From contig NZ_NVQC01000009.1 of NCBI RefSeq assembly GCF_003044035.1, positions 30,001-62,000 of the forward strand: 32,000 nt of DNA, in the 5' to 3' direction. Every line of letters begins with the position of its first letter. Position 1 is the stretch's first letter. The stretch comes from Candidatus Methylomirabilis limnetica (GTDB taxonomy: Bacteria; Methylomirabilota; Methylomirabilia; Methylomirabilales; Methylomirabilaceae). The position numbers were made by a program, and so were the translations under genes. Shown here in pieces: positions 674 to 31,850 of the stretch. Under the pieces are notes generated by a model, which saw nothing but the letters and a program-made list of their open reading frames with translations, was not told the DNA's origin and made no database searches.

Positions 674-821
674 ATTGTACGAGAGGGTGTAGCGGGGCGG
701 GTTTGGGGGGCCAAAAAAGGCTTGACAAATCATGGCCCATCGGGCAAGCTGAATGGTCTTTAAGTTTTTGGGGCTGCCAGGTCCGGTTCAAGGGATCCGG
801 CAGCGCTCTTTTACTGGTGGT

Positions 822-1232
822 ATGAACGAGCGGGAGCAGTTTGTCCGAGGCGCGCTGCTGGGCGCGCTGGGTCTCGTCGTGGCTGGGCTCATCGGTTTTG
901 GGCTCTTCAGGATGTGGGACTGGGCTTTGGGCTTTGCCGCCGGCGCCATCGTAAGCCTGCTGAGCTTCAGGCTCATCGTGCTATCGGTGATCCGTTTCAC
1001 GGGGCGTCCCGCGTCTCGGTCGCGTGGTCAGTGGATCTGGTGGGCCCGATCTCTTTTGAGACTCCTCGGAGTCGCCATCATCCTCCTCCTCGTGATCATC
1101 TACCTGCCTGTAAATCTGGTTGGGGTGGCGCTGGGCCTTCTCGCGGTCCAGCTCGGGATGGGCGGGTATCTCGTTGTGCGTTCGTCGTTTTCGCAAAGCA
1201 GCAATGCCGGGACGGAGGATCGGAAGCTATGA
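822..1232 (+). CDS. Small 4-TM membrane protein, ATP synthase protein I (AtpI/AtpZ)-like
   Basis: Tracked ORF 753..1232. The internal ATG at 822 gives MNEREQFVRGALLGALGLVVAGLIGFGLF... with about four hydrophobic helices. Its stop overlaps the atpF start (ATGA at 1229-1232). Position and topology fit AtpI-like proteins. The start is uncertain (753 is an alternative) and the SD is weak. Confidence 0.55.
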   Translation: MNEREQFVRGALLGALGLVVAGLIGFGLFRMWDWALGFAAGAIVSLLSFRLIVLSVIRFTGRPASRSRGQWIWWARSLLRLLGVAIILLLVIIYLPVNLVGVALGLLAVQLGMGGYLVVRSSFSQSSNAGTEDRKL

Positions 1233-1831
1233 CGAAGAATCGCATCCGACTTATCGCAGTGGTGGTCTGCTTCCTCGGCATGGCGCTCTTCGCGGCCTTC
1301 CCTGCCCTGGCCGCAGAGGAGGCCCATGGAGCGGAGCAGCCCGGGATCATCAACCTGAACAGGACGTTGCTCATTCAGGCTGTGAACTTTCTCATTTTGA
1401 TCGCCGTGCTGTCCAGGTTCTTGTTCAAGCCGCTCACTCAGTTTCTGGCGACACGGGCCGATGGCATCAGGCGTTCTTTGGAGGAGGCGAAGACAGCCAG
1501 AGATGCCGCAGCCCAGACGCAGAAAGAGTACGAAGCGCAGATTCTCGCCACCCGGCGAGAGGCGGCCGCGATGCGAGAGTCGGCGATCCGTGAGGTGGAG
1601 GAGGAACGGCAGCGGTTACTCAAGGTGTCGCGTGAAGAGGCCGCGCGCCTCGTCACAGAGGCCAAAGCGCAGATCGAGCAGGAAGTGAAAAGGGCCAAGA
1701 TCGAGCTTCGCGAGGAGGTGGTGGGCCTCTCGCTGGGGATCACGGAGCGCCTCATTGCCCGTAGCCTCACCGCCGATGATCACCGTCGACTGGCCGAACA
1801 GGTAGCGGCGGAGATCGGGGTCGCCCGGTGA
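1229..1831 (+). CDS. atpF: F0F1 ATP synthase subunit b
   Basis: MTKNRIRLIAVVVCFLGMALFAAFPALAAEE...LLIQAVNFLILIAVLSRFLFKPLTQFLATRADGIRRSLEEAKTARDAA... shows a TM helix followed by a long charged coiled coil typical of subunit b. ATG 1229 is in frame within tracked ORF 914..1831. GTGA overlap with atpH. Confidence 0.9.
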   Translation: MTKNRIRLIAVVVCFLGMALFAAFPALAAEEAHGAEQPGIINLNRTLLIQAVNFLILIAVLSRFLFKPLTQFLATRADGIRRSLEEAKTARDAAAQTQKEYEAQILATRREAAAMRESAIREVEEERQRLLKVSREEAARLVTEAKAQIEQEVKRAKIELREEVVGLSLGITERLIARSLTADDHRRLAEQVAAEIGVAR

Positions 1832-2379
1832 GGGCTGGCGGCCTCTCCAGGCGGTACGCGAAGGCGCTGGTGGACGTCGCAGCCGATCAACAGGTGCTGG
1901 AGGCGGTTGGGCGCGATCTCCATACGGTTGCGGAGACCATGAAACGGAATCGTGAGGCCGCCACCTTCTTCGCGAGCCCCGCCGTCCCGCTGACAGATAA
2001 ACGGCGCGTCCTGCAAGCGATTGCAGGGGGGATAGGCGTAAAGCCGCTCAGCGCCAAATTTCTGAATCTGGTCCTGGAGAAGAGACGGTTCCCATACCTC
2101 GGAGAGATCGCCCTCGCCTATGAGGAGCTGACCGACGAGCGGCTAGGCCGCGGGAAAGCCACGGTGACCTCGGCAGTGCCGCTGTCTGAGCCGATCCTTC
2201 ACGGGCTCAAGGAGCGCCTGCGGATAGCGACAGGGAAAGAGATCTATCTGGAGGCGCGGGTTGATCCCGCCATCGTGGGCGGATTAGTTGCACAGATCGG
2301 TAGTACAATCTACGATGGGTCCCTGAGGACGCAACTGAAAAAGGTGCGCGAGCGCTTACTGAAGAACGAGCACCACTGA
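1828..2379 (+). CDS. atpH: F0F1 ATP synthase subunit delta (OSCP)
   Basis: SRRYAKALVDVA...FFASPAVPLTDKRRVL...VTSAVPLSEPILHGLKERL...ARVDPAIVGGLVAQIGSTIYDGSLRTQL is the classic delta/OSCP pattern. It sits between atpF and atpA. GTG start at 1828. Confidence 0.92.
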   Translation: MRAGGLSRRYAKALVDVAADQQVLEAVGRDLHTVAETMKRNREAATFFASPAVPLTDKRRVLQAIAGGIGVKPLSAKFLNLVLEKRRFPYLGEIALAYEELTDERLGRGKATVTSAVPLSEPILHGLKERLRIATGKEIYLEARVDPAIVGGLVAQIGSTIYDGSLRTQLKKVRERLLKNEHH

Positions 2380-2397
2380 CCCTGAAGGGGTAGCGGA

Positions 2398-3924
<1,527 letters not shown>

Positions 3925-3934
3925 AGACGAGTTG

Positions 3935-3962
3935 CGGGTTTAGAGTTTCGGGTTTCGAGTTG
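3935..3962. repeat. Degenerate heptamer array (CGGGTTT AGAGTTT CGGGTTT CGAGTTG), inverse complement of array 4386-4413
   Basis: Read directly from the sequence. 3942-3957 (agagtttcgggtttcg) is the exact reverse complement of 4402-4417 (cgaaacccgaaactct). A small palindrome cgagttgactcg lies at 3956-3967. Confidence 0.9.
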
Positions 3963-3994
3963 ACTCGGAACACGGAGTTCGAAACTTCTAGCTA

Positions 3995-4423
3995 ATGGCC
4001 ACTTTCCAACGCCTTGAGGACATCGAGGTATGGCAGAAAGCGCGGGAACTGACGCGCGAGGTCTACACGATTTCAGGTCACGGTTCGTTTGCCAAAGACT
4101 TTGCGTTGCGCGACCAGATTCGAAGGGCCAGTGTTTCGATTATGTCCAACATCGCCGAAGGTTTCGAAAGAAGCGGGACAGCCGAATTTGTGCAGTTCCT
4201 TGCAGTGGCGAAAGGCTCGGCAGGTGAGGTCGTCTCGCAAATCTATGTAGCGGGAGATCAGGGGTATATCGACCCGGACCAGCGTGGTCAATTGCTAGCC
4301 ATGGCCGACGAGATCAGTCGGATGATCGGTGGGTTGATGACGTACCTGCGCAAGTCGGGAATCAGAGGTGCGAAGTATAAATTGACCCGAAACCCGAAAC
4401 CCGAAACCCGAAACTCTCAGTGA
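3995..4423 (+). CDS. Four-helix-bundle protein ('23S rRNA intervening-sequence protein' family), inserted between atpA and atpG
   Basis: MATFQRLEDIEVWQKARELTREVYTIS...FALRDQIRRASVSIMSNIAEGFERSGTAEFVQFLAVAKGSAGEVVSQIYVA... matches the remembered family signature (F..L.VWQKA..L, RD.Q.RRA..SI..NIAEG, F..A.GS..E). No SD. The stop TGA at 4421-4423 lies 4 nt before the atpG ATG. Confidence 0.9.
   Translation: MATFQRLEDIEVWQKARELTREVYTISGHGSFAKDFALRDQIRRASVSIMSNIAEGFERSGTAEFVQFLAVAKGSAGEVVSQIYVAGDQGYIDPDQRGQLLAMADEISRMIGGLMTYLRKSGIRGAKYKLTRNPKPETRNSQ
4386..4413. repeat. Perfect tandem heptamer array CCCGAAA x4, inside the 3' end of the four-helix-bundle ORF
   Basis: cccgaaa occurs at 4386, 4393, 4400 and 4407. 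It encodes the tail ...TRNPKPETRNSQ*. Confidence 0.97.
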
Positions 4424-4427
4424 AGCC

Positions 4428-5300
4428 ATGGCCACACTACGAGACATTAAGCGGCGCATTACATCGGTCAAGAGCACGCAGCAGATCACCAAGGCGATGA
4501 AGCTGGTGGCGGCGGCAAAGCTGCGCCGAGCCCAGGAGCGCATCCTGGAGGCCCGCCCCTATGCGTTCAAGATGCAGGAAGTGCTGGCCAGCTTGGCGCT
4601 GAGAGCTGACCCCCAGTATCATCCGTTGCTCCGCAGACGCGAAACCAGCAGGAAGATCGTGGTGGTCATCGCGTCCGATAAGGGGCTCTGCGGGGGGTTT
4701 AATAGCAACATCATGCGCCGATCCCTGGAGATGCTTCGGGGAACGGCTGACGAGGTGACCGTCACCCTGGTGGTGGTTGGACGCAAGGCGCGCGATTTCT
4801 ATCGGCGACGTCCCTACGCCATTCGATCGGAACAGATCGGCTTCTTCGATCGGCTGGCGTACGACCATGCGGCCGCTTTGGGCCAAGAGCTGGCGAACGC
4901 CTACGTGGCTGAAGAGGCGGACGAGATCCATCTGATCTATAATGAGTTCAAGTCGGTCGCGACCCAGCGGGTCGTCGTGGAGCGGCTACTACCCATCGAG
5001 CCGCTGCAGGCTTCAGAGGAGCTTGCCGCCGTCGATTTTATCTACGAGCCCTCGCCGCAGGCGATCCTGGAGGGGCTGTTGCCCAAACACGTCGAGGTGC
5101 AGGTGTACAGAGCGCTCATGGAATCGCTGGCCGGTGAGTACGGCGCCCGGATGACCGCCATGGATGCGGCGAGCAGGAACGCCACGGAGATGATCGACCT
5201 GCTTACGTTGCAGTTCAACAAGGCGCGGCAGGAACGAATTACCAGAGAGCTGCTCGAGGTGGTCGGAGGGGCCGAAGCGCTACGACAGGCGCGTGGGTAA
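4428..5300 (+). CDS. atpG: F0F1 ATP synthase subunit gamma
   Basis: MATLRDIKRRITSVKSTQQITKAMKLVAAAKLRRAQE...ARMTAMDAASRNA..LI..LTLQFNKARQERITRELLEVVGGAEAL is the canonical gamma N- and C-terminus. Confidence 0.97.
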   Translation: MATLRDIKRRITSVKSTQQITKAMKLVAAAKLRRAQERILEARPYAFKMQEVLASLALRADPQYHPLLRRRETSRKIVVVIASDKGLCGGFNSNIMRRSLEMLRGTADEVTVTLVVVGRKARDFYRRRPYAIRSEQIGFFDRLAYDHAAALGQELANAYVAEEADEIHLIYNEFKSVATQRVVVERLLPIEPLQASEELAAVDFIYEPSPQAILEGLLPKHVEVQVYRALMESLAGEYGARMTAMDAASRNATEMIDLLTLQFNKARQERITRELLEVVGGAEALRQARG

Positions 5301-5304
5301 AAGT

Positions 5305-6803
<1,499 letters not shown>

Positions 6804-6887
6804 CGTAAAGTATCGTAAGCGCCGTCACGTCATGGCCTTTGGGGCCCTGGGACGCGACGGACGCAAGAGACGTTTTCTGAGGAAGTG

Positions 6888-7313
6888 ATGGCAGAGCGGC
6901 ATAAGCAAACTTTCAGGCTTGAGGTGGTGACGCCTCAGCGGCTGATCATCAGCGAAGAGGTCGAAGAGCTGGTGGCCCCCGGACAAGAGGGGCATTTCGG
7001 CGTGTGGCCCGGCCACATCCCCTTTATGGCGACGCTGAAGATTGGGGAGCTTTCCTATAAGAAGGGGCAGCAGGAGAGGTTTCTTGCCGTCAACTGCGGG
7101 TATGCCGAGGTTCGTTCCGACAAGGCGATCATCCTGGTGGAGACGGCAGAGCGACCGGAAGAGATCGACATAGCCAGGGCCGAACAGGCAAAGGTGAGGG
7201 CAGAGGAGCGGCTGCGCAGCCTCAGCGACGACACCATCGATCATACCAGGGCCCGGGCTGCCTTGGACCGGGCGCTCGCCAGAATAGCGGTCGCCGCCAG
7301 GGTAAGGGCATGA
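6888..7313 (+). CDS. atpC: F0F1 ATP synthase subunit epsilon
   Basis: [47 protein letters not shown]...[26 protein letters not shown] 6888 lies 4 nt after gagga; GTG 6885 is an alternative start. Confidence 0.93.
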
Positions 7314-8326
7314 TTATCGTGATGAAAACGGGAGCTCCCGAGAGCCAGATCCGAGAAGTCATTCAGCGTGTAGAGGCGCTCGGATACCAGGCCCATGTCA
7401 TTCAGGGTACACAGCGAACGGTCATAGGGGCCATTGGGGACGAGCGGAGCAAGGACCGCCTGCAATCGCTGGAGTTGATGGCAGGGGTGGAAACCGTACT
7501 CCCGATCCTGCAGCCGTTCAAGTTGGCGAGCCGGGAAGTCAAGGGCGGTAAGAGTGTTGTCAAGGTCGGCGATCTGGAGATCGGCGGACAGGCTGTTGTA
7601 GTTATGGCTGGCCCGTGCTCCGTAGAAAGCGAGGCCCAGATGCTACAGACCGCCCAGGCGGTCAAGGCGGCTGGAGCGAAGGTGCTCCGTGGGGGGGCCT
7701 TCAAGCCGCGCACCTCGCCCTATGCCTTTCAAGGCATGGCAGAGGAGGGGCTCAAGCTTCTGGATGTCGCGAGGTCGGCAACCGGCCTGAAGATCGTGAC
7801 CGAGGTGGTCAATCCCGCAGACGCCGAGCTGGTGGCGGAGTATGCCGACATCCTGCAGATTGGCGCCAGGAACGTCCAGAACTTCGCCCTACTGAAGAGG
7901 GTCGGCGAGGTCGGTAAGCCGGTCCTGCTCAAGCGGGGGATAGCGACCACGATCAAGGAGTACCTGATGGCGGCCGAATACATCCTTGCCGAGGGGAACT
8001 ATAATGTGATCCTCTGCGAGCGCGGGATTCGGACCTTCGAAACCAGCACGCGCTTTACCCTCGATCTGAATGCGATCCCGGTACTCAGCAAACTGACCCA
8101 TCTGCCGGTGTTTGTGGACCCCAGTCACGGCACCGGCCACTGGGAGTACGTGTCGCCGATGGCGAAGGCAGCGATCGCCTGCGGGGCCGACGGACTCATC
8201 ATCGAAGTCCACCCGAACCCCGAGGAAGCCCAATCGGACGGCTTGCAGTCGCTGAAACTCGAGAAGTTCCAGCAGCTCATGGACGAGCTACGCCCCGTTG
8301 CCGAGGCCGTAGGCCGCCGGCTGTAG
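7310..8326 (+). CDS. aroF: 3-deoxy-7-phosphoheptulonate (DAHP) synthase, type I-beta with N-terminal ferredoxin-like regulatory domain
   Basis: The N-terminal ~70 aa ([33 protein letters not shown]...) is followed by ...[11 protein letters not shown]...[17 protein letters not shown]...[13 protein letters not shown]....KPVLLKRG...CERGIRTFE...R.TLD...P......HLPV.VDPSH. ATGA overlap with the atpC stop (7310-7313). Confidence 0.9.
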
Positions 8327-8393
8327 CGTAGCCCCTCCCAACCGCAAGCCCGCCCTGCCCCGCTTCACTCTTGACCCCCAGTTACACCGAACT

Positions 8394-8522
8394 TTAGCAT
8401 CGGACTACGGTGATGCCCTCATTCCCTTCTTCTTTGTGCCCAGTGATCGTGGTGAGCCCCCACATATTCATGGGAGACGGGAGGACAAGGCTGCCACTTT
8501 CTGGCTTGATCCTGTCGCGTAG
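8394..8522 (+). pseudogene. Decayed DUF4160-family fragment (no start codon, premature stop)
   Basis: Frame 3 reads LASDYGDALIPFFFVPSDRGEPPHIHGRREDKAATFWLDPVA* (stop 8520-8522). It aligns with the intact copy at 14745..15035 (FYFFSREEHRMHVHVHCGRGEAKFWLEP). There is no ATG/GTG/TTG at the expected N-terminus, and it is truncated just before the repeat element at 8563. Confidence 0.55.
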
Positions 8523-8562
8523 CAGGTAATACAGCACCACGAAGACTTATAGGTAAACACTC

Positions 8563-8726
8563 AGGTGTTTAGGCTATAGGCTGAAGGCTGTTAGCCATTG
8601 CGTATGGACCGAATCAAAAGGCGTCCAGAACCTTTTCGGTCTCCATCATTTTCGCGTCGCATTCGAAAAACGCTTGGCTCATCTGTGCGCGTTCCTACAG
8701 TCTAAAAGCCTACAGTCTATCTACCT
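8563..8726. mobile_element. Miniature heptamer-bracketed cassette, copy 1 (homologous to 31708..31850)
   Basis: aggtgtttaggct + AGGCTAT AGGCTGA AGGCTGT, then a core containing cgaatc...cagaaccttttcgg, then ctaaaagcctacagtctatctacct. The same end motifs (aggtgtttag..., ctaaaagcc...atctacct) and the core block occur at 31708..31850. The minus-strand core reads ...METEKVLDAF*. Confidence 0.6.
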
Positions 8727-8738
8727 AAGTAGTTACAT

Positions 8739-9122
8739 TTACAGTGTGATTGCCACCAGGTCGATTTCGACGCTGGCGCCACGGGGGAGGCTAGCCACGC
8801 CGACCGTGGAGCGGGCGGGTTTGACGTTGCCCAGGTACTCGGCGTAGACCTCGTTCATCTTTGCAAAGCTGTTCAGATCGGTGAGATAAACAGTCGCCTT
8901 GATCACATGATTAAGGGAACTGCCCCCGGCCTCCAGGACCGCCTTGAGATTTTCTAGAACCTGCCGGGTCTGAGCCGAGATGTCGCCGTCGATCAGCGTC
9001 CCGGTAACCGGATCAAGCGCGATCTGCCCTGAAGTGAAAAGCAGGCCACCCCACTTTATGGCCTGCTCGTAGGGTCCGATCGCCTGTGGTGCGCGTTCAG
9101 TGCTAATCGCTTCACGTAACAT
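8739..9122 (-). CDS. ridA: RidA/YjgF-family reactive-intermediate (enamine/imine) deaminase
   Basis: [84 protein letters not shown]...[22 protein letters not shown] gggagga lies upstream. Confidence 0.93.
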
Positions 9123-14402: not shown

Positions 14403-14693
14403 ATGAATCCGGAATCACTGGAAGTCTATTGCGCGAACGAGAAGTGTGGCGATCCCGAAGTGGATACGGGCGCCTCGGCTCCCACCGTGCAGTCGAGGAA
14501 GCATCGTCGCATGAGCTATATGGGTAAGCGTCGAATCGGCGTCGGTCGAGCCTTTCTCTCGAGCCTCGTCATGTTCCAGTTTGATCCCAGCGTGCATTCT
14601 CTCCCGCCAGGCAAGTACCACATCTTTCAGTGTTCCGTGTGCAACCGCGAGCGCATTTACCGTGAGCACGGCAAACAGCTCACGGAGGTGTAA
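14403..14693 (+). CDS. Hypothetical protein with split Cys pairs (C-x5-C ... C-x2-C), possible zinc ribbon
   Basis: The ATG is preceded by aggagg (9-nt spacing). The Cys pairs are YCANEKCG near the N-terminus and QCSVCNRE near the C-terminus. I recognise no homologous family. Confidence 0.45.
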   Translation: MNPESLEVYCANEKCGDPEVDTGASAPTVQSRKHRRMSYMGKRRIGVGRAFLSSLVMFQFDPSVHSLPPGKYHIFQCSVCNRERIYREHGKQLTEV

Positions 14694-14744
14694 CCGCGGG
14701 CCCCGGTCTTTTCAATATCGTGTGGGCAGCTCCGGAAAGTTAAC

Positions 14745-15035
14745 TTGATCTCGGCCCAGCAGCCGCTAGGCGCTGAACATCAACGGAGGATATCCCTGAG
14801 CCCGACAATATTCAGAGCTGGGGGATTCCGCTTCTATTTCTTCTCCCGCGAGGAGCACCGAATGCACGTTCATGTTCATTGTGGACGTGGGGAGGCGAAG
14901 TTCTGGCTGGAACCGAAGATCGAACTGGCGCAGAATTGTGGTATGATCGCCAGGCAACTCAGGACGGCGCAAACGCTCATCGAGGAGCACAGCGATGAAA
15001 TCTGCAACGCTTGGCAAAAACACTTCAGGCACTGA
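14745..15035 (+). CDS. DUF4160-family protein (start uncertain: TTG 14745 or CTG 14796)
   Basis: ...SPTIFRAGGFRFYFFSREEHRMHVHVHCGRGEAKFWLEPKIELAQNCGMIARQLRTAQTLIEEH matches the remembered DUF4160 pattern (MPTI.R.GGYRFFF.S.E...PHIHV....EAKFWL.P). A strong SD ggagga lies 5 nt before CTG 14796, which is where family members normally start. Confidence 0.75.
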   Translation: MISAQQPLGAEHQRRISLSPTIFRAGGFRFYFFSREEHRMHVHVHCGRGEAKFWLEPKIELAQNCGMIARQLRTAQTLIEEHSDEICNAWQKHFRH

Positions 15036-15306
15036 GGTAACGAATATCTCGAGGCATGGATTCTGGCTGCTGCTGGCCGACGAGGAGCTCTTCGTCCCGT
15101 TCAAAGAGTTTCCTTGGTTCAAGGATGCATCGGTATCAGAGGTGCTGAACGTTGAGCGACCGCATCCTCACCACCTGTATTGGCCCGATCTCGATGTGGA
15201 TTTAGCCGTTGAATCCATCAGGCATCCAGAGAAATTCCCTCTCGTCTCTAAGGTCTCGCACCCAGCGAGGCGCTCAAGCCGACGCCCAAAGGTCGCGAGC
15301 GGCTGA
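14995..15306 (+). CDS. DUF2442-family protein, overlapping partner of DUF4160
   Basis: ...VTNISRHGFWLLLADEELFVPFKEFPWFKDASVSEVLNVERPHPHHLYWPDLDVDLAVESI matches the remembered DUF2442 pattern (...W..LD.D....L). It overlaps the upstream gene by 41 nt. Confidence 0.7.
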   Translation: MKSATLGKNTSGTEVTNISRHGFWLLLADEELFVPFKEFPWFKDASVSEVLNVERPHPHHLYWPDLDVDLAVESIRHPEKFPLVSKVSHPARRSSRRPKVASG

Positions 15307-18204: not shown

Positions 18205-18251
18205 AAACCCCCCCAACCCCCCCCTTCGCAAAGGGGGGACACAGGGGGTTT
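18205..18251. repeat. Nested GC-rich palindrome (outer aaaccccc/gggggttt, inner cccccctt/aagggggg)
   Basis: Read directly from the sequence. Same compositional class as 9142-9166, 16353-16439 and 31496-31580. Confidence 0.8.
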
Positions 18252-18257
18252 GTCCGA

Positions 18258-18292
18258 GGCTGACCGCTGAGGGCTGATTGCCGAACGCTATT
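18258..18292. repeat. Degenerate heptamer array (GGCTGAC CGCTGAG GGCTGAT TGCCGAA CGCTATT)
   Basis: 7-nt periodicity of the GCTGA core, read directly. It lies in the glpX leader. Confidence 0.7.
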
Positions 18293-19304: not shown

Positions 19305-19345
19305 ATCAGCTATCAGCTATCAGCCATCAGCTCCCAGCTACCAGC
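19305..19345. repeat. Heptamer array ATCAGCT ATCAGCT ATCAGCC ATCAGCT CCCAGCT ACCAGC abutting the hisS ATG
   Basis: Read directly. The last unit ends at the base before ATG 19346. There is no Shine-Dalgarno-like purine run. Confidence 0.95.
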
Positions 19346-20629
19346 ATGCAACTGAAAGGTGTGCGCGGGGCGCCTGACCTCTTGCCTCAAGAGTCCGCGA
19401 GGTGGCAGCGCGTCGAAGCGACAACGCGTTCTCTCCTACAGCGATACGGCTACGCGGAAATCCGGACCCCCGTCTTCGAGCGTACAGAGCTATTTGTCCG
19501 CGGCATCGGCGAGGGGACCGATATTGTCGAGAAAGAGATGTACACCTTCACCGATCAGGGTGAGGTCAATCTCACGCTTCGACCCGAAGGGACCGCGCCG
19601 GTTGTCCGGGCCTACCTCGAACACCAAATGGCCACCCAGTTCCCCTTCGTGAAGGTGTACTACCTCGGCCCGATGTTCCGTCGGGAACGGCCACAATCGG
19701 GACGATACCGGCAGTTCCACCAGATTGGCGTGGAGGCGATCGGCTCTCATCAGCCGGCGGTAGATGCGGAGGTCATCGATCTCCTCTGGGCGCTTATGGT
19801 GGAGGAGCTCCGGATTCCCGATCTGCAGCTTCGCCTCAACTCGATCGGTGACGCAGCTTGCCGGCCCACAATCCGAGATCGCCTCCTCCGCTACATGGCG
19901 GATCGGTCATCAGGCCTCTGCCATGATTGCCAGGGGAGGCTGACGCGCAATCCGCTCCGGATTATGGACTGCAAGCAGGCGGGCTGCCAGAGCCTGGTGG
20001 CGGAGGCGCCAAAGCCGATCGAGAGCCTGTGTGAAGCCTGCGCGGCGCACTTCGCCGAGGTTCGGAGTCTGCTGGATATCCTGAAGATCCCCTATACCAT
20101 CGATGATCGGCTGGTTCGTGGCCTTGAATACTACACGAAAACGGCCTTCGAGGTGATCAATCCCCGCCTTGGCGCTCAGAATGCTCTGGCCGGCGGCGGG
20201 CGCTTCGACGGCCTGATTGAGGCGATGGGCGGGCCCTCTACCCCAGGGATCGGCTTCGCGGTGGGACTGGAGCGGGTCATGGCCTCTCTTCCGTCAGCCT
20301 CAGACGAGGGCGCCCTGCATGGAGTCTACGTTGCCACCATAGGCCGAGAGGCGCAGCGGATCGGGATGGGGCTCTTGCAGGAGCTGCGTCGTCGTGGCAT
20401 GAGAGGCCTGATGGATCTCGAAGCGCGCAGCCTCAAGGGGCAGATGCGCCAGGCGAATAAGGAGCGGGTCCGGTACTGTGTGATCCTTGGCGAAGATGAG
20501 CTCAGGCAAGGTCAGGTGATGCTGCGGGATATGGTGAAAGCTGACCAGGGCTCAGTTGCGCTGGAGCAGATTGTCGAGCATCTGGTGGGACTGGAGGCGG
20601 TGTGTGAGCGCGAGCATGGGACTCCTTAA
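19346..20629 (+). CDS. hisS: Histidine--tRNA ligase
   Basis: ...GVRGAPDLLPQESARWQRVE...RYGY.EIRTPVFE.TELF.RGIGE.TDIVEKEMYTF.D.....L.LRPEGTA.V.RAY.EH.......KVYY.GPMFR.ERPQ.GRYRQFHQ.GVE. These are class II motifs. Confidence 0.96.
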   Translation: MQLKGVRGAPDLLPQESARWQRVEATTRSLLQRYGYAEIRTPVFERTELFVRGIGEGTDIVEKEMYTFTDQGEVNLTLRPEGTAPVVRAYLEHQMATQFPFVKVYYLGPMFRRERPQSGRYRQFHQIGVEAIGSHQPAVDAEVIDLLWALMVEELRIPDLQLRLNSIGDAACRPTIRDRLLRYMADRSSGLCHDCQGRLTRNPLRIMDCKQAGCQSLVAEAPKPIESLCEACAAHFAEVRSLLDILKIPYTIDDRLVRGLEYYTKTAFEVINPRLGAQNALAGGGRFDGLIEAMGGPSTPGIGFAVGLERVMASLPSASDEGALHGVYVATIGREAQRIGMGLLQELRRRGMRGLMDLEARSLKGQMRQANKERVRYCVILGEDELRQGQVMLRDMVKADQGSVALEQIVEHLVGLEAVCEREHGTP

Positions 20630-22400
20630 GCGGACGGAATACTGCGGTCTGTTGGGCCCGCAGCACGTGGGGGAGCCCGTGGTGCTGATGGGCTGGGTGC
20701 ATCGACGACGTGACCACGGCGGTCTCATCTTTATCGATCTTCGGGATCGCGAAGGGGTTGCCCAGACGGTCTTCAACCCCGAGTTTCACCCGGAGGCCCA
20801 TGAGGTAGCCCACCGGATGCGCGCCGAATTTGTGGTGGCGATTCGCGGCAGGGTCCAGGCGCGCCCGCCGGGTACCGTGAATACCGCGCTTCCCAGCGGG
20901 GCTATTGAGGTCGTGGTAGAGGAGGCGCAGATCCTCAATGAGGCCAAACCGCCAGTCTTTCCGATTGAGGAGCAGACTGACGTGGCTGAGGAGACTCGGC
21001 TGACGTATCGGTACCTGGACCTCCGTCGCCCTTCGATGCTGCGCAACCTGCGCCTGCGTCACAAGGTGTCACAAGCCATCCGCGGCTATCTGGATCGACA
21101 CGGATTTGTTGAGGTGGAGACCCCCATGCTGACCCGGAGCACGCCAGAGGGGGCCCGGGACTATCTGGTCCCGAGTCGACTGAATCCCGGAGAGTTCTAC
21201 GCCCTGCCGCAGTCGCCCCAGCTCTTCAAACAGCTCCTCATGGTCGCAGGGATGGATCGGTACTATCAGATCGTCAGGTGCTTTAGGGACGAGGATCTGC
21301 GGGCTGACCGACAGCCGGAGTTTACCCAGATCGACATGGAGCTGTCGTTTGTGGATCGAGAGGATGTGCTTGAGGTGACGGAAGGGCTGGTGGCGGCACT
21401 CTTTGAAGCAGCCGGCAAGCCTTCCCTGCCCAGACCCTTTCCGCGACTCACGTACGCCGAGGCCATCGACCGGTTTGGTCTCGATGCACCGGACACCCGA
21501 TTCGGAATGGAACTTGCCGATTTGACCGAGATGTTGCGCGGGGTCGAGGCAAAGGCGTTCGCCGAGCCGATTGCGCAAGGCGGCGCGGTGAAGGGGATGA
21601 ACGTCAAAGGGTGCGGCTCATTCTCCAGGACGCAGATCGATGGGCTGGTTGAATGTGCGAAGGGGTTTGGGGCCAAGGGCCTGGCCTGGTTCAAGGTTTC
21701 CGCAGATGGGATCCAGTCACCCCTGGCCAAGTTCCTCGGGCCGACGATCCTCAAACGCCTTGCTGAGCGACTGAACGGGGAGGCAGGGGATCTCCTGTTG
21801 CTGATTGCCGATCAGCCGATGACGGCGGCCGGGGCGCTGGGACGTCTTCGGGTCAAATTGGGTCGTGAGTTGAAGCTGATCGATGAGAGCGCGCTTGCGG
21901 TCACCTGGGTCATCGACTTCCCACTCCTTGAATACAATCCCGAACAAGGGCGGTGGCAGGCGATGCATCACCCCTTTACATCGCCGCTGGACGAGGATCT
22001 GCCGCTCCTTGGCGACGATCCCGGAAAGGTCCGCGCCAAGGCCTATGACCTGGTCGTGAACGGGCAGGAGCTGGGCGGCGGCAGCATCAGGATCCACCGC
22101 CGGGATGTCCAGAGTCAGATGTTCGCCGCCTTGGGGATCGGTGAGGATGAGGCGAGGGCCAAGTTCGGGTTTCTCCTGGAGGCGCTTGAGTACGGCGCCC
22201 CACCCCACGGCGGGATCGCCTTCGGCTTGGATCGGATCATCGCGCTGCTTGCTGGGGCCACCTCTATTCGGGACGTCATCGCCTTTCCCAAGACCCAAAA
22301 GGCGCAAGATCTGATGACGAAGGCCCCCTCGTCTGTCGACTCGAGGCAGCTTAGGGATCTGAAGATCAAGCTGGATCTTGATGTAAAGGGCAGCCCTTAG
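20616..22400 (+). CDS. aspS: Aspartate--tRNA ligase (bacterial type; discriminating or not cannot be told from sequence alone)
   Basis: MGLLKRTEYCGLLGPQHVGEPVVLMGWVHRRRDHGGLIFIDLRDREG... (compare the E. coli N-terminus MRTEYCG), ...FYALPQSPQLFKQLLM..G.DRYYQI.RCFRDEDLRADRQPEFTQID.E...GGGSIRIH. It overlaps the hisS 3' end. GTG 20604 (6 nt after ggagg) is an alternative start. Confidence 0.95.
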   Translation: MGLLKRTEYCGLLGPQHVGEPVVLMGWVHRRRDHGGLIFIDLRDREGVAQTVFNPEFHPEAHEVAHRMRAEFVVAIRGRVQARPPGTVNTALPSGAIEVVVEEAQILNEAKPPVFPIEEQTDVAEETRLTYRYLDLRRPSMLRNLRLRHKVSQAIRGYLDRHGFVEVETPMLTRSTPEGARDYLVPSRLNPGEFYALPQSPQLFKQLLMVAGMDRYYQIVRCFRDEDLRADRQPEFTQIDMELSFVDREDVLEVTEGLVAALFEAAGKPSLPRPFPRLTYAEAIDRFGLDAPDTRFGMELADLTEMLRGVEAKAFAEPIAQGGAVKGMNVKGCGSFSRTQIDGLVECAKGFGAKGLAWFKVSADGIQSPLAKFLGPTILKRLAERLNGEAGDLLLLIADQPMTAAGALGRLRVKLGRELKLIDESALAVTWVIDFPLLEYNPEQGRWQAMHHPFTSPLDEDLPLLGDDPGKVRAKAYDLVVNGQELGGGSIRIHRRDVQSQMFAALGIGEDEARAKFGFLLEALEYGAPPHGGIAFGLDRIIALLAGATSIRDVIAFPKTQKAQDLMTKAPSSVDSRQLRDLKIKLDLDVKGSP

Positions 22401-22440
22401 CTGTCAGCGTTCAGCAATGAGCTGACTGCTGATAGCCGAG
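22399..22440. repeat. Inverted degenerate heptamer arrays forming a 16-bp (13/16) hairpin immediately after the aspS stop
   Basis: gctgtcagcgttcagc (22400-15) / loop aatga / gctgactgctgatagc (22421-36). The left arm is nearly identical to 5306-5321 in the atpG-atpD junction. Confidence 0.85.
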
Positions 22441-23435: not shown

Positions 23436-23542
23436 GAGGGCGTTAGAGGAGAGTTTCGTTCGGGTTCTTTGCGGTATTACCACCGACGGGTGGAGTATGT
23501 GGGGATTCGCCTTTAAGGAGTCTGCCGGTAGAAGGGGGGCGA

Positions 23543-25472: not shown

Positions 25473-25507
25473 GAACCTTGAACCTTGAACCTTGAACCTT
25501 GAACGTG
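25473..25507. repeat. Heptamer array GAACCTT x4 + GAACGTG ending 4 nt before the recO ATG
   Basis: gaacctt occurs at 25473, 25480, 25487 and 25494, and gaacgtg at 25501. There is no SD before ATG 25512. Confidence 0.95.
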
Positions 25508-30304: not shown

Positions 30305-30325
30305 CTGAAGGCTGATCGCTGAAAA
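30305..30325. repeat. Short heptamer array CTGAAGG CTGATCG CTGAAAA
   Basis: Read directly from the sequence. It lies immediately after the terminator and 9 nt from the Tim44-like stop codon. Confidence 0.6.
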
Positions 30326-31302: not shown

Positions 31303-31425
31303 CCTTACCTCCTCCTATCGCTGGCACCAACCCCAGCGGGCTGACAAAAAGACTACTAATAGCCAATCCACCGATAGAAGTATAAGCAATCCTCCCGGGC
31401 AACGCAAGTGAAATTCAGTCTCATC

Positions 31426-31611
31426 GTAACCATTCAGTGAGAGGGGGGAAATCATTAAATAAAATGCAGTATGTTTTTATAAAATCCCCCTTAATCCCCC
31501 TTTTCCAAAGGGGGAAACGGGTAGTCCCCCTCTTTGGAAAAGAGGGGCAAGAGCCTGCCCCGGCATGTAATAAGCCGGGGGGAGATTTTCTACCCGTAAC
31601 TGAATGGTTGC
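31426..31611. mobile_element. MITE-like ~186-bp element: 13-bp terminal inverted repeats (12/13) enclosing three GC-rich hairpins; possible CTCATC target duplication
   Basis: gtaaccattcagt (31426-38) pairs with actgaatggttgc (31599-611). Internal hairpins lie at 31496-31515, 31526-31547 and 31556-31580. ctcatc occurs at 31420-25 and at 31613-18 (1-nt offset). Confidence 0.5.
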
Positions 31612-31707
31612 CCTCATCGCTTCTGACGGAGCAGATCAGTAATGAGCCGATAGAGTTTCCGGTTCTTTGGGCAGATACGCATTGACGATATTCCAGAGGT
31701 AACTGCA

Positions 31708-31850
31708 AGGTGTTTAGACTGAAGGCTGAAGACTGGAGGTTCTAAATTATCTCGCAAGGCACGAATCGAGCCATTCAAGACCTTTTCGGAGTTTTGTATA
31801 ATCACGCATGACTTGCCCCTAAAAGCCTTCAGCCTTCAGCCTATCTACCT
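31708..31850. mobile_element. Miniature heptamer-bracketed cassette, copy 2 (homologous to 8563..8726) with minus-strand relic resembling a four-helix-bundle protein C-terminus
   Basis: aggtgtttagact + AGACTGA AGGCTGA AGACTGG (31716-36), then a core with cgaatc...caagaccttttcgg, then ctaaaagcc + AGCCTTC AGCCTTC AGCCTAT (31824-44) + ctacct. The arms are 17/19 complementary. The minus strand reads ...NSEKVLNGSIRALRDNLEPPVFSLQS (part of tracked ORF 31614..31805). Confidence 0.6.

Follow-up and report, generated by a model that had tools for sequence, protein, structure and literature searches.

Heptameric repeat arrays in gene junctions of Candidatus Methylomirabilis limnetica and a candidate intercistronic hairpin element with a four-helix-bundle gene

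Tandem arrays of seven-nucleotide units in gene junctions have already been described in cyanobacteria, Beggiatoaceae, Bacteroidetes and Geobacter (PMC4679880; bioRxiv 10.1101/2022.06.06.494920; PMC2700814). The intervening sequence (IVS) in the 23S rRNA of Coxiella combines an open reading frame (ORF) for the protein S23p with a variable number of tandem heptamers and a terminal stem of 28 bp that RNase III cuts in vitro (PMC4990558). The present analysis concerns 32 kb of Candidatus Methylomirabilis limnetica (contig NZ_NVQC01000009.1, positions 30,001 to 62,000; hereafter the window), the genome being read in this stretch and at syntenic loci, where related contigs carry L numbers. The junctions of the window hold a series of heptamer arrays, two of which face each other as inverted repeats around a gene for a four-helix-bundle (4HB) protein of family PF05635 between atpA and atpG. 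We consider it fairly probable that this unit is an intercistronic hairpin element of the IVS type and that the heptamer arrays represent arms of such junction elements, in some cases a single arm that has survived. Heptamer repeats, among them the short tandemly repeated repetitive (STRR) sequences, the TAACTGA repeats and the Geobacter elements, and the PF05635 'S23p' proteins are two old unknowns, linked before only in the Coxiella 23S IVS.

The locus resembles the 23S rRNA IVSs of Leptospira, Coxiella burnetii, Xanthomonas and Brucella in its PF05635/TIGR02436 protein, whose nearest structure is Xanthomonas XCC0516 (2GSC), and in an ORF placed in the loop of a ~28-35 bp terminal-inverted-repeat stem, sense in the host transcript. 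With the Coxiella IVS it also shares tandem heptamers, which in Coxiella are of variable copy number and lie in the 5' part of the element (PMC4990558). In contrast to those IVSs, the window element sits in an mRNA operon (atpA/atpG) rather than in helix 25 or 45 of 23S rRNA, and the 80 related loci discussed below have a long ORF as neighbour on either side. In Coxiella the unit is GACAGAT, whereas here both whole arms consist of tandem heptamers with a GTT/AAC core, and RNase III cleavage was shown for Coxiella while the window stem is a predicted substrate. A relative by fold is Avd, whose pentamer binds an RNA stem-loop in the ribonucleoprotein of diversity-generating retroelements (DGRs) (bioRxiv 10.1101/2023.10.23.563531). 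The window protein has the same fold and would probably form a similar pentameric basic barrel, although sequence identity is only 10-15% and no reverse transcriptase, template repeat or variable repeat lies near 3995-4423. Assignment of the gene as Avd itself was rejected, NF033474 reaching 17 bits against a cutoff of 80 and no reverse transcriptase being present among the window genes. The repetitive extragenic palindromic (REP) sequences and bacterial interspersed mosaic elements (BIMEs) of enterobacteria are many-copy hairpin-forming elements in operon junctions, and the REP-associated tyrosine transposase (RAYT) has been proposed to mobilise REPs. The window elements are like them in being short junction hairpins for which a dedicated protein is proposed; REPs, however, are not built of tandem heptamers, and RAYT is an HUH transposase unrelated to the 4HB protein.

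The 5' arm of the element (3928-3962, + strand) begins 4 nt past the atpA stop codon and is made of five degenerate heptamers with a GTT core (GAGTTGC, GGGTTTA, GAGTTTC, GGGTTTC and GAGTTGA). It was detected by Tandem Repeats Finder (TRF) and pairs with 4385-4416 in the minimum free energy (MFE) fold of 3920-4430, where the arm stem closes over the whole 4HB ORF. The complementary 3' arm (4385-4416, + strand), with an AAC core and a TRF match of 100%, reads (ACCCGAA) x4 followed by ACTC; it shares sequence with the final 12 codons of the 4HB ORF, and its end lies 11 nt from the atpG ATG. As an inverted repeat the two arms score 22, and 28 of their 32 paired positions are Watson-Crick. All four ACCCGAA units in the 3' arm (4385-4412) are identical at 28 of 28 positions in the window, L220 and L221 (downstream of 5387) despite a dS of ~0.7 in atpG. 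Their 5' arms have diverged considerably. The leader from the 5' arm to the ATG (3963-3994 in the window) contains a short AAC-type stretch in L220, L221 and L007, for instance CTCGAAACCCGAAACTCGAAACTC in L221, which is degenerate in the window copy. This leader stretch might form a local stem with the 5' arm instead of leaving it to the distal 3' arm, so that two alternative stems would exist.

The enclosed gene (3995-4423, + strand, 142 aa) is in sense orientation between atpA and atpG and matches PF05635 at 1e-35 with 122.6 bits (cutoff 33.8) and TIGR02436 with 114.9 bits (cutoff 24). By sequence its closest entry in the PDB is 2GSC. The AlphaFold2 model (pLDDT 88) has four long helices, and residues 128-142, which are coded by the 3' arm, are disordered. 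Foldseek ranks the pentameric XCC0516 (2GSC; TM-score 0.93 normalised to target, rmsd 1.4-2.0) and BT_0352 (2RLD; 0.82-0.87) first, followed by DGR Avd (4DWL, 8UBE; 0.64 query-normalised, 0.81-0.84 target-normalised). From the motif GxxRxxxSxxxNxxE, conserved in PF05635 (Lin et al., quoted by Zhang and Ye 2013; PMC3936711), R44, S48, N52 and E55 are found at motif spacing and are invariant in 28 relatives, and three residues before R44 stands an invariant Q41, not the G of the quoted motif. The median isoelectric point of the family is 9.1. Among orthologues the 4HB gene has a dN/dS of 0.2-0.33, and dS between the window and L221 is 0.57 for the 4HB gene and 0.74 for atpG. As judged from these rates, the protein is under purifying selection and the element appears to be an old resident. 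No other 4HB gene was found in the window by hidden Markov model (HMM) search of all ORFs of at least 70 aa or by Pfam/NCBIfam searches of unassigned ORFs, and hhalign of the family against 31421-31708 and 14403-14693 found no 4HB there. The first-pass annotation of this DNA had spoken of 4HB ORFs in the plural; the window has 3995-4423 alone for at least twelve arrays. Phage carriage was looked for in IMG/VR, with only 3 distant matches (38% identity). The gene interrupts an ATP synthase operon (753-7313) of the order atpI-atpF-atpH-atpA-[4HB]-atpG-atpD-atpC; there are no genes for subunits a and c between atpI and atpF, so that these two must lie elsewhere.

The general case rests on a search of one genome per GTDB species with the 4HB protein, which returned 582 confirmed relatives. 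The best 80 of these loci, 1.21 Mb from ~15 phyla, were used; they represent Methylomirabilota, Acidobacteriota, Nitrospirota, several deltaproteobacterial orders, Planctomycetota, Verrucomicrobiota, Chlorobi, Chromatiales, Zetaproteobacteria, Chloroflexia, Spirochaetes and others. Neighbouring genes in them were called as long ORFs and not from annotation. The thresholds for arrays and stems, here and in the window, were set by us, and controls were run with identical thresholds. The 80 loci contain 351 arrays of period 7 against 8-94 for periods 5, 6, 8, 9 and 10, and 132 of the 351 lie no further than ~100 nt from either end of the 4HB gene, a zone that makes up ~2% of the sequence. For each gene, the 200 nt on its upstream side were compared with the 250 nt on its downstream side for their best ungapped inverted repeat; the score was at least 14 in 70 of 79 loci, compared with 0 of 395 controls of the same geometry (control maximum 13). 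This architecture is conserved across phyla. Its commonest form is G[ORF]A (32 loci), and its polarity is constant, the 5' arm being GTT-type and the 3' arm AAC-type in 32/32 loci with both arms typed. Stems have a median of 31.5 nt, or ~4.5 units, and end a median of 39.5 nt before the ATG, while the 3' arm starts a median of 26.5 nt past the conserved domain. A GTT/AAC core is found in 84% of near-gene arrays vs 37% of distant ones. Gene-less hairpins in the same loci share the orientation, with GTT first in 22 and AAC first in 4.

The elements are biased in orientation as well: where both neighbours were called and run in one direction, the 4HB gene is sense in 35 cases and antisense in 2, and the distance from the upstream stop codon to the 5' arm is 0-13 nt in most loci. 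They therefore occupy intercistronic operon junctions. Genes named 23S_rRNA_IVP have been reported inside cas operons (PMC3936711). The arm units vary (AGTTTCG, GGTTTCT, AGTTCAA, AGTCCAA, AGTCTCA, GGTTCGG), and arms and protein clades are inherited together. Arm-unit distance falls with protein identity (Spearman -0.17, permutation p < 0.002), and groups that share one unit across phyla have protein identities of 0.60-0.70 within the group and 0.57-0.59 to the rest. A clade of six elements that spans three phyla, in deltaproteobacterial, Thermodesulfovibrionales and Acidobacteriota genomes, has clear 9-nt arm units in five of the six and is exclusive, the five nearest proteins of each member being the other five (p < 0.0002). 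The first-pass idea of a single system of protein plus cognate repeat is upheld in part: for the GTT/AAC class the arms flank the gene and track its clade, while the GCTGA class described below shows no such tie. Co-variation of arm and protein is predicted equally by a protein with a cognate repeat and by co-inheritance of one element. We found no paper reporting a general link of the PF05635 subfamily with inverted GTT-core heptamer arms, and none on the placement in mRNA operon junctions across phyla or on the clade-specific repeat period; within an incomplete coverage of the literature, these points appear to be new.

On the reading that we favour, each arm would comprise about four to five tandem 7-nt units, with the second arm the reverse complement of the first. 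The family with GTT first and AAC second would form the stem of an IVS-type element that carries the TIGR02436 4HB gene in its loop, and a family with TCAGC first and GCTGA second would have the same build without a gene, like the STRR and long simple sequence repeat (LSSR) arrays. By analogy with the 23S rRNA IVSs, the arms may pair in the operon transcript and the ~30-bp stem may be cut by RNase III, so that the cassette would be freed while the cistrons beside it remained usable. The 4HB protein, which is basic and probably a pentamer, may in turn bind the periodic repeats with about one unit per protomer; five protomers at 7 nt each would span 35 nt, to be compared with the median stem of 31.5 nt, in parallel with Avd. 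Gene-less hairpins and solo arrays would be derivatives or targets of 4HB elements. A more far-reaching version takes the TIGR02436 pentamer as a sequence-specific reader of RGTT repeats, with one 7-nt unit per protomer (9-nt in one clade), which with its arms would form an autonomous intercistronic element that spreads horizontally; the IVSs of 23S rRNA would be the special case of an element that landed in rRNA, Avd a domesticated relative, and the STRR-like gene-less hairpins and solo arrays its non-autonomous derivatives or landing sites. That version we regard as unlikely; if true, it would supply the decades-old puzzle of the STRR and other heptamer sequences with a protein partner. Binding to the defined repeat, a stoichiometry of one unit per protomer and cleavage of the predicted RNase III stem are all testable. 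For annotation it matters that in many such ORFs the final 10-15 codons come from the repeat and encode a disordered stretch, and that the elements split operons (atp here; cas in the literature) and may be mistaken for functional partners of their neighbours.

Turning to the window as a whole, the heptamer arrays of the first-pass annotation are real and are concentrated in gene junctions, as it had claimed. TRF reports period-7 arrays at 3928-3962, 4385-4414, 5334-5360, 19305-19345, 25473-25504 and 31824-31842, with units such as AGCTGAT, AGGCTGA, CCCGAAA and GAACCTT. A strict lag-identity scan finds 5 arrays of period 7 and none of periods 4-6 or 8-12, where shuffled windows lead one to expect 0.02 period-7 arrays; at a relaxed threshold the count is 11 vs 0.8 expected, with 0-4 for other periods. 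Among short periods, enrichment in the window is confined to period 7. The items at 5305-5325, 8693-8718, 18258-18292, 22399-22440, 23451-23471, 30305-30325 and 31716-31736 are too degenerate to count as tandem arrays, and most of them are real as a hairpin or as the inverted partner of a stronger array. On a gene map built from Pfam and gene calls on syntenic contigs, 12 of 13 arrays are intergenic, while intergenic DNA makes up 11.7% of the window (binomial P = 7.7e-11); the single other array, 4385-4414, codes for the disordered tail of the 4HB ORF. Also confirmed is that arrays abut start codons without a Shine-Dalgarno motif: one touches the hisS ATG, another ends 4 nt before the recO ATG and the TRF array of the 3' arm ends 13 nt before the atpG ATG, and a GGAG-type motif is lacking from all three leaders. 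Inverted pairing, which had also been noted, is seen at 5303-5362, 8571-8718, 22399-22440 and 31716-31844, and the two short hairpins (5303-5362 and 22399-22440) and the minus strand of 31708-31850 give fold z-scores of -4.9 to -5.3. An Rfam search of the window gave 0 hits, rRNA included, and no intrinsic terminators were found at the hairpins in 3800-8800.

By sequence the arrays can be divided into two classes, GCTGA/TCAGC with about nine members and GTT/AAC with four. The former has the units AGCTGAT, AGGCTGA, GGCTGAC and their complements, in solo arrays or TCAGC-first hairpins; the latter comprises 3928-3962, 4385-4416, 25473-25507 and the remnant 23451-23471. The statement that most units share an RGCTGAW core accordingly holds for ~9 of the 13 arrays and fails for those at 3928, 4385, 25473 and 23451. 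A metagenome scan for (AGCTGAT)3 returned at least 120 contigs, of which 80 loci were examined, and the following figures hold among the matches listed. Their GC content ranges from 32 to 70%, the commonest array length is 4.6-5.7 units, and 28/80 arrays have an inverted partner within ~100 nt, with loops of 2-107 nt except in one; the TCAGC arm comes first in 23 pairs and second in 5. The family HMM found a 4HB protein in 0/80 of these metagenome loci, and a GCTGA core is absent from all near-4HB arrays of the 80 related loci. For the RGCTGAW class, the earlier proposal that the arrays are tied to 4HB genes is not supported by either count. Because of these metagenome results, the GCTGA family is seen as a widespread STRR/LSSR-like repeat with a hairpin build and no gene, and the class behaves like the known STRR/LSSR heptamer repeats. 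The metagenome arrays (L100-L179) often directly abut an array of another heptamer (TAGCTTC, AAGGGCT, GTCAGAA, GACCGCT or AGCCCAT), for example in L108, L134, L147, L158 and L174. Composite arrays of differing heptamers are also a feature of cyanobacterial STRRs.

The STRR-like form that had been proposed was borne out, the arrays being heptameric, intergenic, often beside start codons and variable in copy number; in strain L002, array-length polymorphism is seen as one GAACCTT unit fewer than in the window, a case of unit slippage between near-identical strains. Like the cyanobacterial STRR/LSSR repeats, they consist of tandem 7-nt units in few to tens of copies, lie between genes and belong to several unit families per genome. 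The units of STRR1-3 are CCCCAGT, TTGGTCA and CAACAGT, from which the window units differ. Unlike the STRRs, many window arrays form inverted pairs, and their host is the NC10 bacterium Candidatus Methylomirabilis, not a cyanobacterium. An origin of the window itself in a cyanobacterium was rejected: the GC content is 59.7%, there is a single highly iterated palindrome (HIP1) site (GCGATCGC), atpA-G-D-C lie contiguously, and Candidatus Methylomirabilis gives the closest matches to hisS and atpG. For the hisS protein, identity to Candidatus Methylomirabilis lanthanidiphila is 87%; closer relatives occur in metagenomes, with exact copies of hisS on 22 metagenome contigs. The TAACTGA repeats of marine Beggiatoaceae, cyanobacteria and Bacteroidetes (MacGregor 2015) are likewise heptamers directly upstream of start codons without a Shine-Dalgarno motif; they occur as direct repeats in 2-6 copies, with a patchy phylogenetic distribution that suggests horizontal spread (PMC4679880). 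That genome has 169 direct sets and one indirect set, whereas inverted pairing is common in the window; the unit differs, and no associated gene was identified for TAACTGA, while the window GTT/AAC arms enclose the 4HB gene. The Geobacter metallireducens elements (GGGACCG x4 and MTYCTGA x5 sites) also show 4-5 tandem heptamers at each of many genomic sites, and were read by their authors as regulator binding sites or RNA elements, with no 4HB link reported (PMC2700814). MTYCTGA contains CTGA, as does the window GCTGA class, a likeness of description rather than of compared sequences, and the MTYCTGA sites, drawn as strand-switching loops in a figure legend, are presumably inverted pairs.

The history of the elements is best followed at atpA/atpG. 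The closest 4HB relatives (95% identity; 81% in M. lanthanidiphila; 78%) all stand at this junction, which points to vertical residence and not to fresh transposition, and with the gene the junction measures 503-504 nt in the window, L220, L221 and L007. The nucleotide clades of atpA and atpG are {window, L220, L093} and {L221, L095, L097}, each with element-bearing and element-less genomes, so the element is present or absent at one and the same junction. Without the gene, the junction has 55 nt in L093 (~95% nucleotide identity to the window), with a weak loop-less hairpin of AGGGTATAGGGTTGAGGGGTTAGGGTT and AACCCGAAACCCTCAG (z -1.3) and a right flank, ctcagtgaagccATG, in common with the window; 32 nt with only GGGTT units in L095; 38 nt with AGGCT-type heptamers in L097; and 6 nt in L099. 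The element appears to have been lost repeatedly, and gain is less likely. L093 has two further hairpins that its relatives do not, at atpH/atpA and atpD/atpC (its positions 4337-4418 and 8461-8585). The former has arms of 8-9-nt GCGTC/GACGC units, and the latter has two heptamer arms, one GTT-type and one AAC-type, with a loop of 43 nt between them (z -4.5).

Other junctions also turn over between species. At glpX/hisS, M. lanthanidiphila has an array of the same position, spacer and length with the unit CTTCAGC, not TATCAGC; L090 has both arms with a loop of ~65 nt (z -5.9), and no array is present there in L091 and L092. The aspS/phoH arms enclose 5 nt in the window and ~190-200 nt, including a promoter-like motif, in L089 and L090. 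At era/recO, the window has the solo GAACCTT array, while L089, L090 and L091 have ORF-less GTT/AAC hairpins (z -2.9 in L089, -5.1 in L091), those of L089 using the units of its own 4HB arms.

The same arms could act at the DNA level, as terminal inverted repeats of a transposon served either by the 4HB protein or by a transposase or recombinase from another locus, with ORF-less hairpins comparable to miniature inverted-repeat transposable elements (MITEs). This would fit terminal repeats whose mismatches look neutral (G.U 90, A.C 89), the patchy presence at atpA/atpG in both Methylomirabilis clades, the L093-specific hairpin insertions of ~60-100 nt at atpH/atpA and atpD/atpC, and a gene with arms common to several phyla; the mobile-IVS idea of Ralph and McClelland (cited in PMC4990558) is akin to it. 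We hold it to be not very likely, since no target-site duplication is seen at 3925-3929/4416-4427, no identical element stands at two sites of the 32 kb and syntenic loci, and no transposase lies nearby in the window. Moreover, the arm units differ among elements of one genome, unlike copies of one transposase, and the sense bias of 35:2 in operons points to dependence on, or selection through, the transcript. A mutational origin would dispense with function and gene link altogether: slippage favouring 7-nt units would produce neutral microsatellites, the LSSRs of Mrazek and colleagues, tolerated only in non-coding DNA. Unit numbers do differ between near-identical strains, turnover between species is fast, stem mismatches look neutral, heptamers are reported to be the most frequent class of LSSR in many prokaryotes (cited in PMC4679880), and (AGCTGAT)n occurs in contigs of 32 to 70% GC among the matches listed. 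Slippage, however, gives no inverted partners, yet 28/80 of the listed AGCTGAT arrays are paired with a polarity of 23:5 and GTT-first hairpins outnumber AAC-first ones 22:4. It leaves unexplained why 70/79 genes of one subfamily lie between arms vs 0/395 controls, why arm period follows protein clade and why the 3' arm is conserved at 28/28 positions where flanking dS is ~0.7, and as a complete explanation we judge it improbable.

It is also conceivable that the arrays are regulatory sites of the host, binding a global RNA or DNA regulator or replacing the Shine-Dalgarno sequence, with the 4HB gene incidental or itself the regulator. Such roles were proposed for the Beggiatoaceae TAACTGA repeats and for Nostoc heptamers at recF/recO (PMC4679880; bioRxiv 10.1101/2022.06.06.494920; PMC2700814), and in the window arrays touch or lie near the Shine-Dalgarno-less starts of hisS, recO and atpG, an array or hairpin being kept at era/recO in three further species and at glpX/hisS in two. 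Against this, unit, arm number and repeat family shift at orthologous junctions (CTTCAGC vs TATCAGC; GAACCTT vs GTTTCGG and CCCGAAAC; AGGCT-type in L097 at atpA/atpG), some relatives have no array there, and aspS/phoH keeps the same arms around a loop of either 5 or 190 nt. Arrays also occur in convergent 3'-3' spacers (8571-8718, 30305-30325), and the atpG leader beside the ATG is unchanged with or without the element, all of which makes regulation an unlikely main function. The IVS-type hairpin reading has points against it too. The tie between the GCTGA and GTT families would be one of shared architecture only, argued by analogy, and the 80 loci represent the nearest relatives within a single PF05635 subfamily rather than a sample of the whole family. 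The polymorphism at atpA/atpG may be loss only, the element looking old and vertically inherited within Methylomirabilota, and one element at two sites was not found in the 32 kb and syntenic loci, so mobility was not caught in the act. Stem mismatches over the related loci (G.U and A.C at the near-equal counts given above, others 105) give no sign that pairing is selected in RNA rather than being a neutrally decaying DNA inverted repeat. The stop codon (4421-4423) lies outside the stem, so that stem cleavage removes it and a simple sequence of excision followed by translation fails. The window gene has no Shine-Dalgarno motif, which 55/81 relatives possess, and no evident promoter of its own, and expression of this copy is doubtful. 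To our knowledge no catalytic function has been described for the 4HB protein. S23p of Coxiella is apparently not made in vivo (PMC4990558).

The remaining arrays of the window are described here in order of position. Between atpG and atpD lies an inverted-array hairpin (5303-5362, + strand; fold -30.8 kcal/mol, z -4.9) with a TCAGC-type arm at 5305-5325 and (AGCTGAT) x4 at 5334-5360; in relatives its arms surround loops of other lengths. The convergent aroF/ridA spacer contains an inverted AGGCTGA-type pair (8571-8718, no strand assigned; arms 8571-8598 and 8693-8718; z -2.4 on the + strand) whose loop of ~95 nt (8599-8692) holds only ORFs of chance size and no credible one. Upstream of glpX, a degenerate solo array with a GCTGA core (18258-18292, + strand; GGCTGAC, CGCTGAG, GGCTGAT, TGCCGAA, CGCTATT) was read directly and lies under the TRF and scan thresholds; it is not present at the orthologous junctions of L089-L092. 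The array abutting the hisS ATG (19305-19345, + strand) is a solo TCAGC-type array of about six ATCAGCT units found by TRF. At aspS/phoH, a TCAGC/GCTGA hairpin with the 5-nt loop (22399-22440, + strand) folds at -26.4 kcal/mol (z -5.2), and substitutions in strain L003 strengthen its stem. The weak GTT-type remnant in the phoH/ybeY spacer (23451-23471, + strand; GAGTTTC, GTTCGGG, TTCTTTG) was read directly, is below detection thresholds and is possibly a decayed arm. In front of recO stands the solo AAC-type array (25473-25507, + strand), GAACCTT x4.6 with a TRF match of 100%. A weak three-unit array with a CTGA core (30305-30325, + strand), read directly and below thresholds, comes after the csp terminator hairpin in a convergent spacer. 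The last is an inverted AGGCTGA-type pair (31716-31844, no strand assigned) with arms at 31716-31736 and 31824-31844 and a loop of ~87 nt, seen by TRF or lag-identity scan, hairpin scan and fold (z -4.0 on the + strand, -5.3 on the - strand).

Several minor features of the junctions were recorded along the way. After the DUF167 gene (18206-18255) there is a poly-C/poly-G hairpin (AAACCCCCCCAACCCCCCCC...GGGGGG...GGGGG) whose C-run length varies between near-identical strains. C-run/G-run hairpins are also found in relatives, at DUF167/glpX and in the aspS/phoH loop of L089 and at atpG/atpD of L099, and look like a second family of junction hairpins. The genes hisS and aspS overlap by 26 nt (20604-20629), according to gene calls on a syntenic contig. 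The spacer after the gene for 3-deoxy-D-arabino-heptulosonate 7-phosphate synthase (8327-8738) is a hotspot of variable cargo: a heptamer-armed hairpin in the window, BrnT/BrnA in L093 (10042-11246), MNT/HepT and BrnT in L095 (9837-12420) and a ParE toxin with an antitoxin in L097 (9829-12000). The FKBP/GHMP kinase spacer (14403-15306) contains a DUF4160/DUF2442 pair in the window and Gp49/HTH_3 and Polbeta/HepT pairs in strain L003 (1102-2966), whose hisS protein is identical. L003 further has a 223-nt insertion in the phoH/ybeY spacer (window 23436-23542), directly upstream of the GTT-type remnant, and the G run before ybeY is G6, G7 or G8 depending on the strain.

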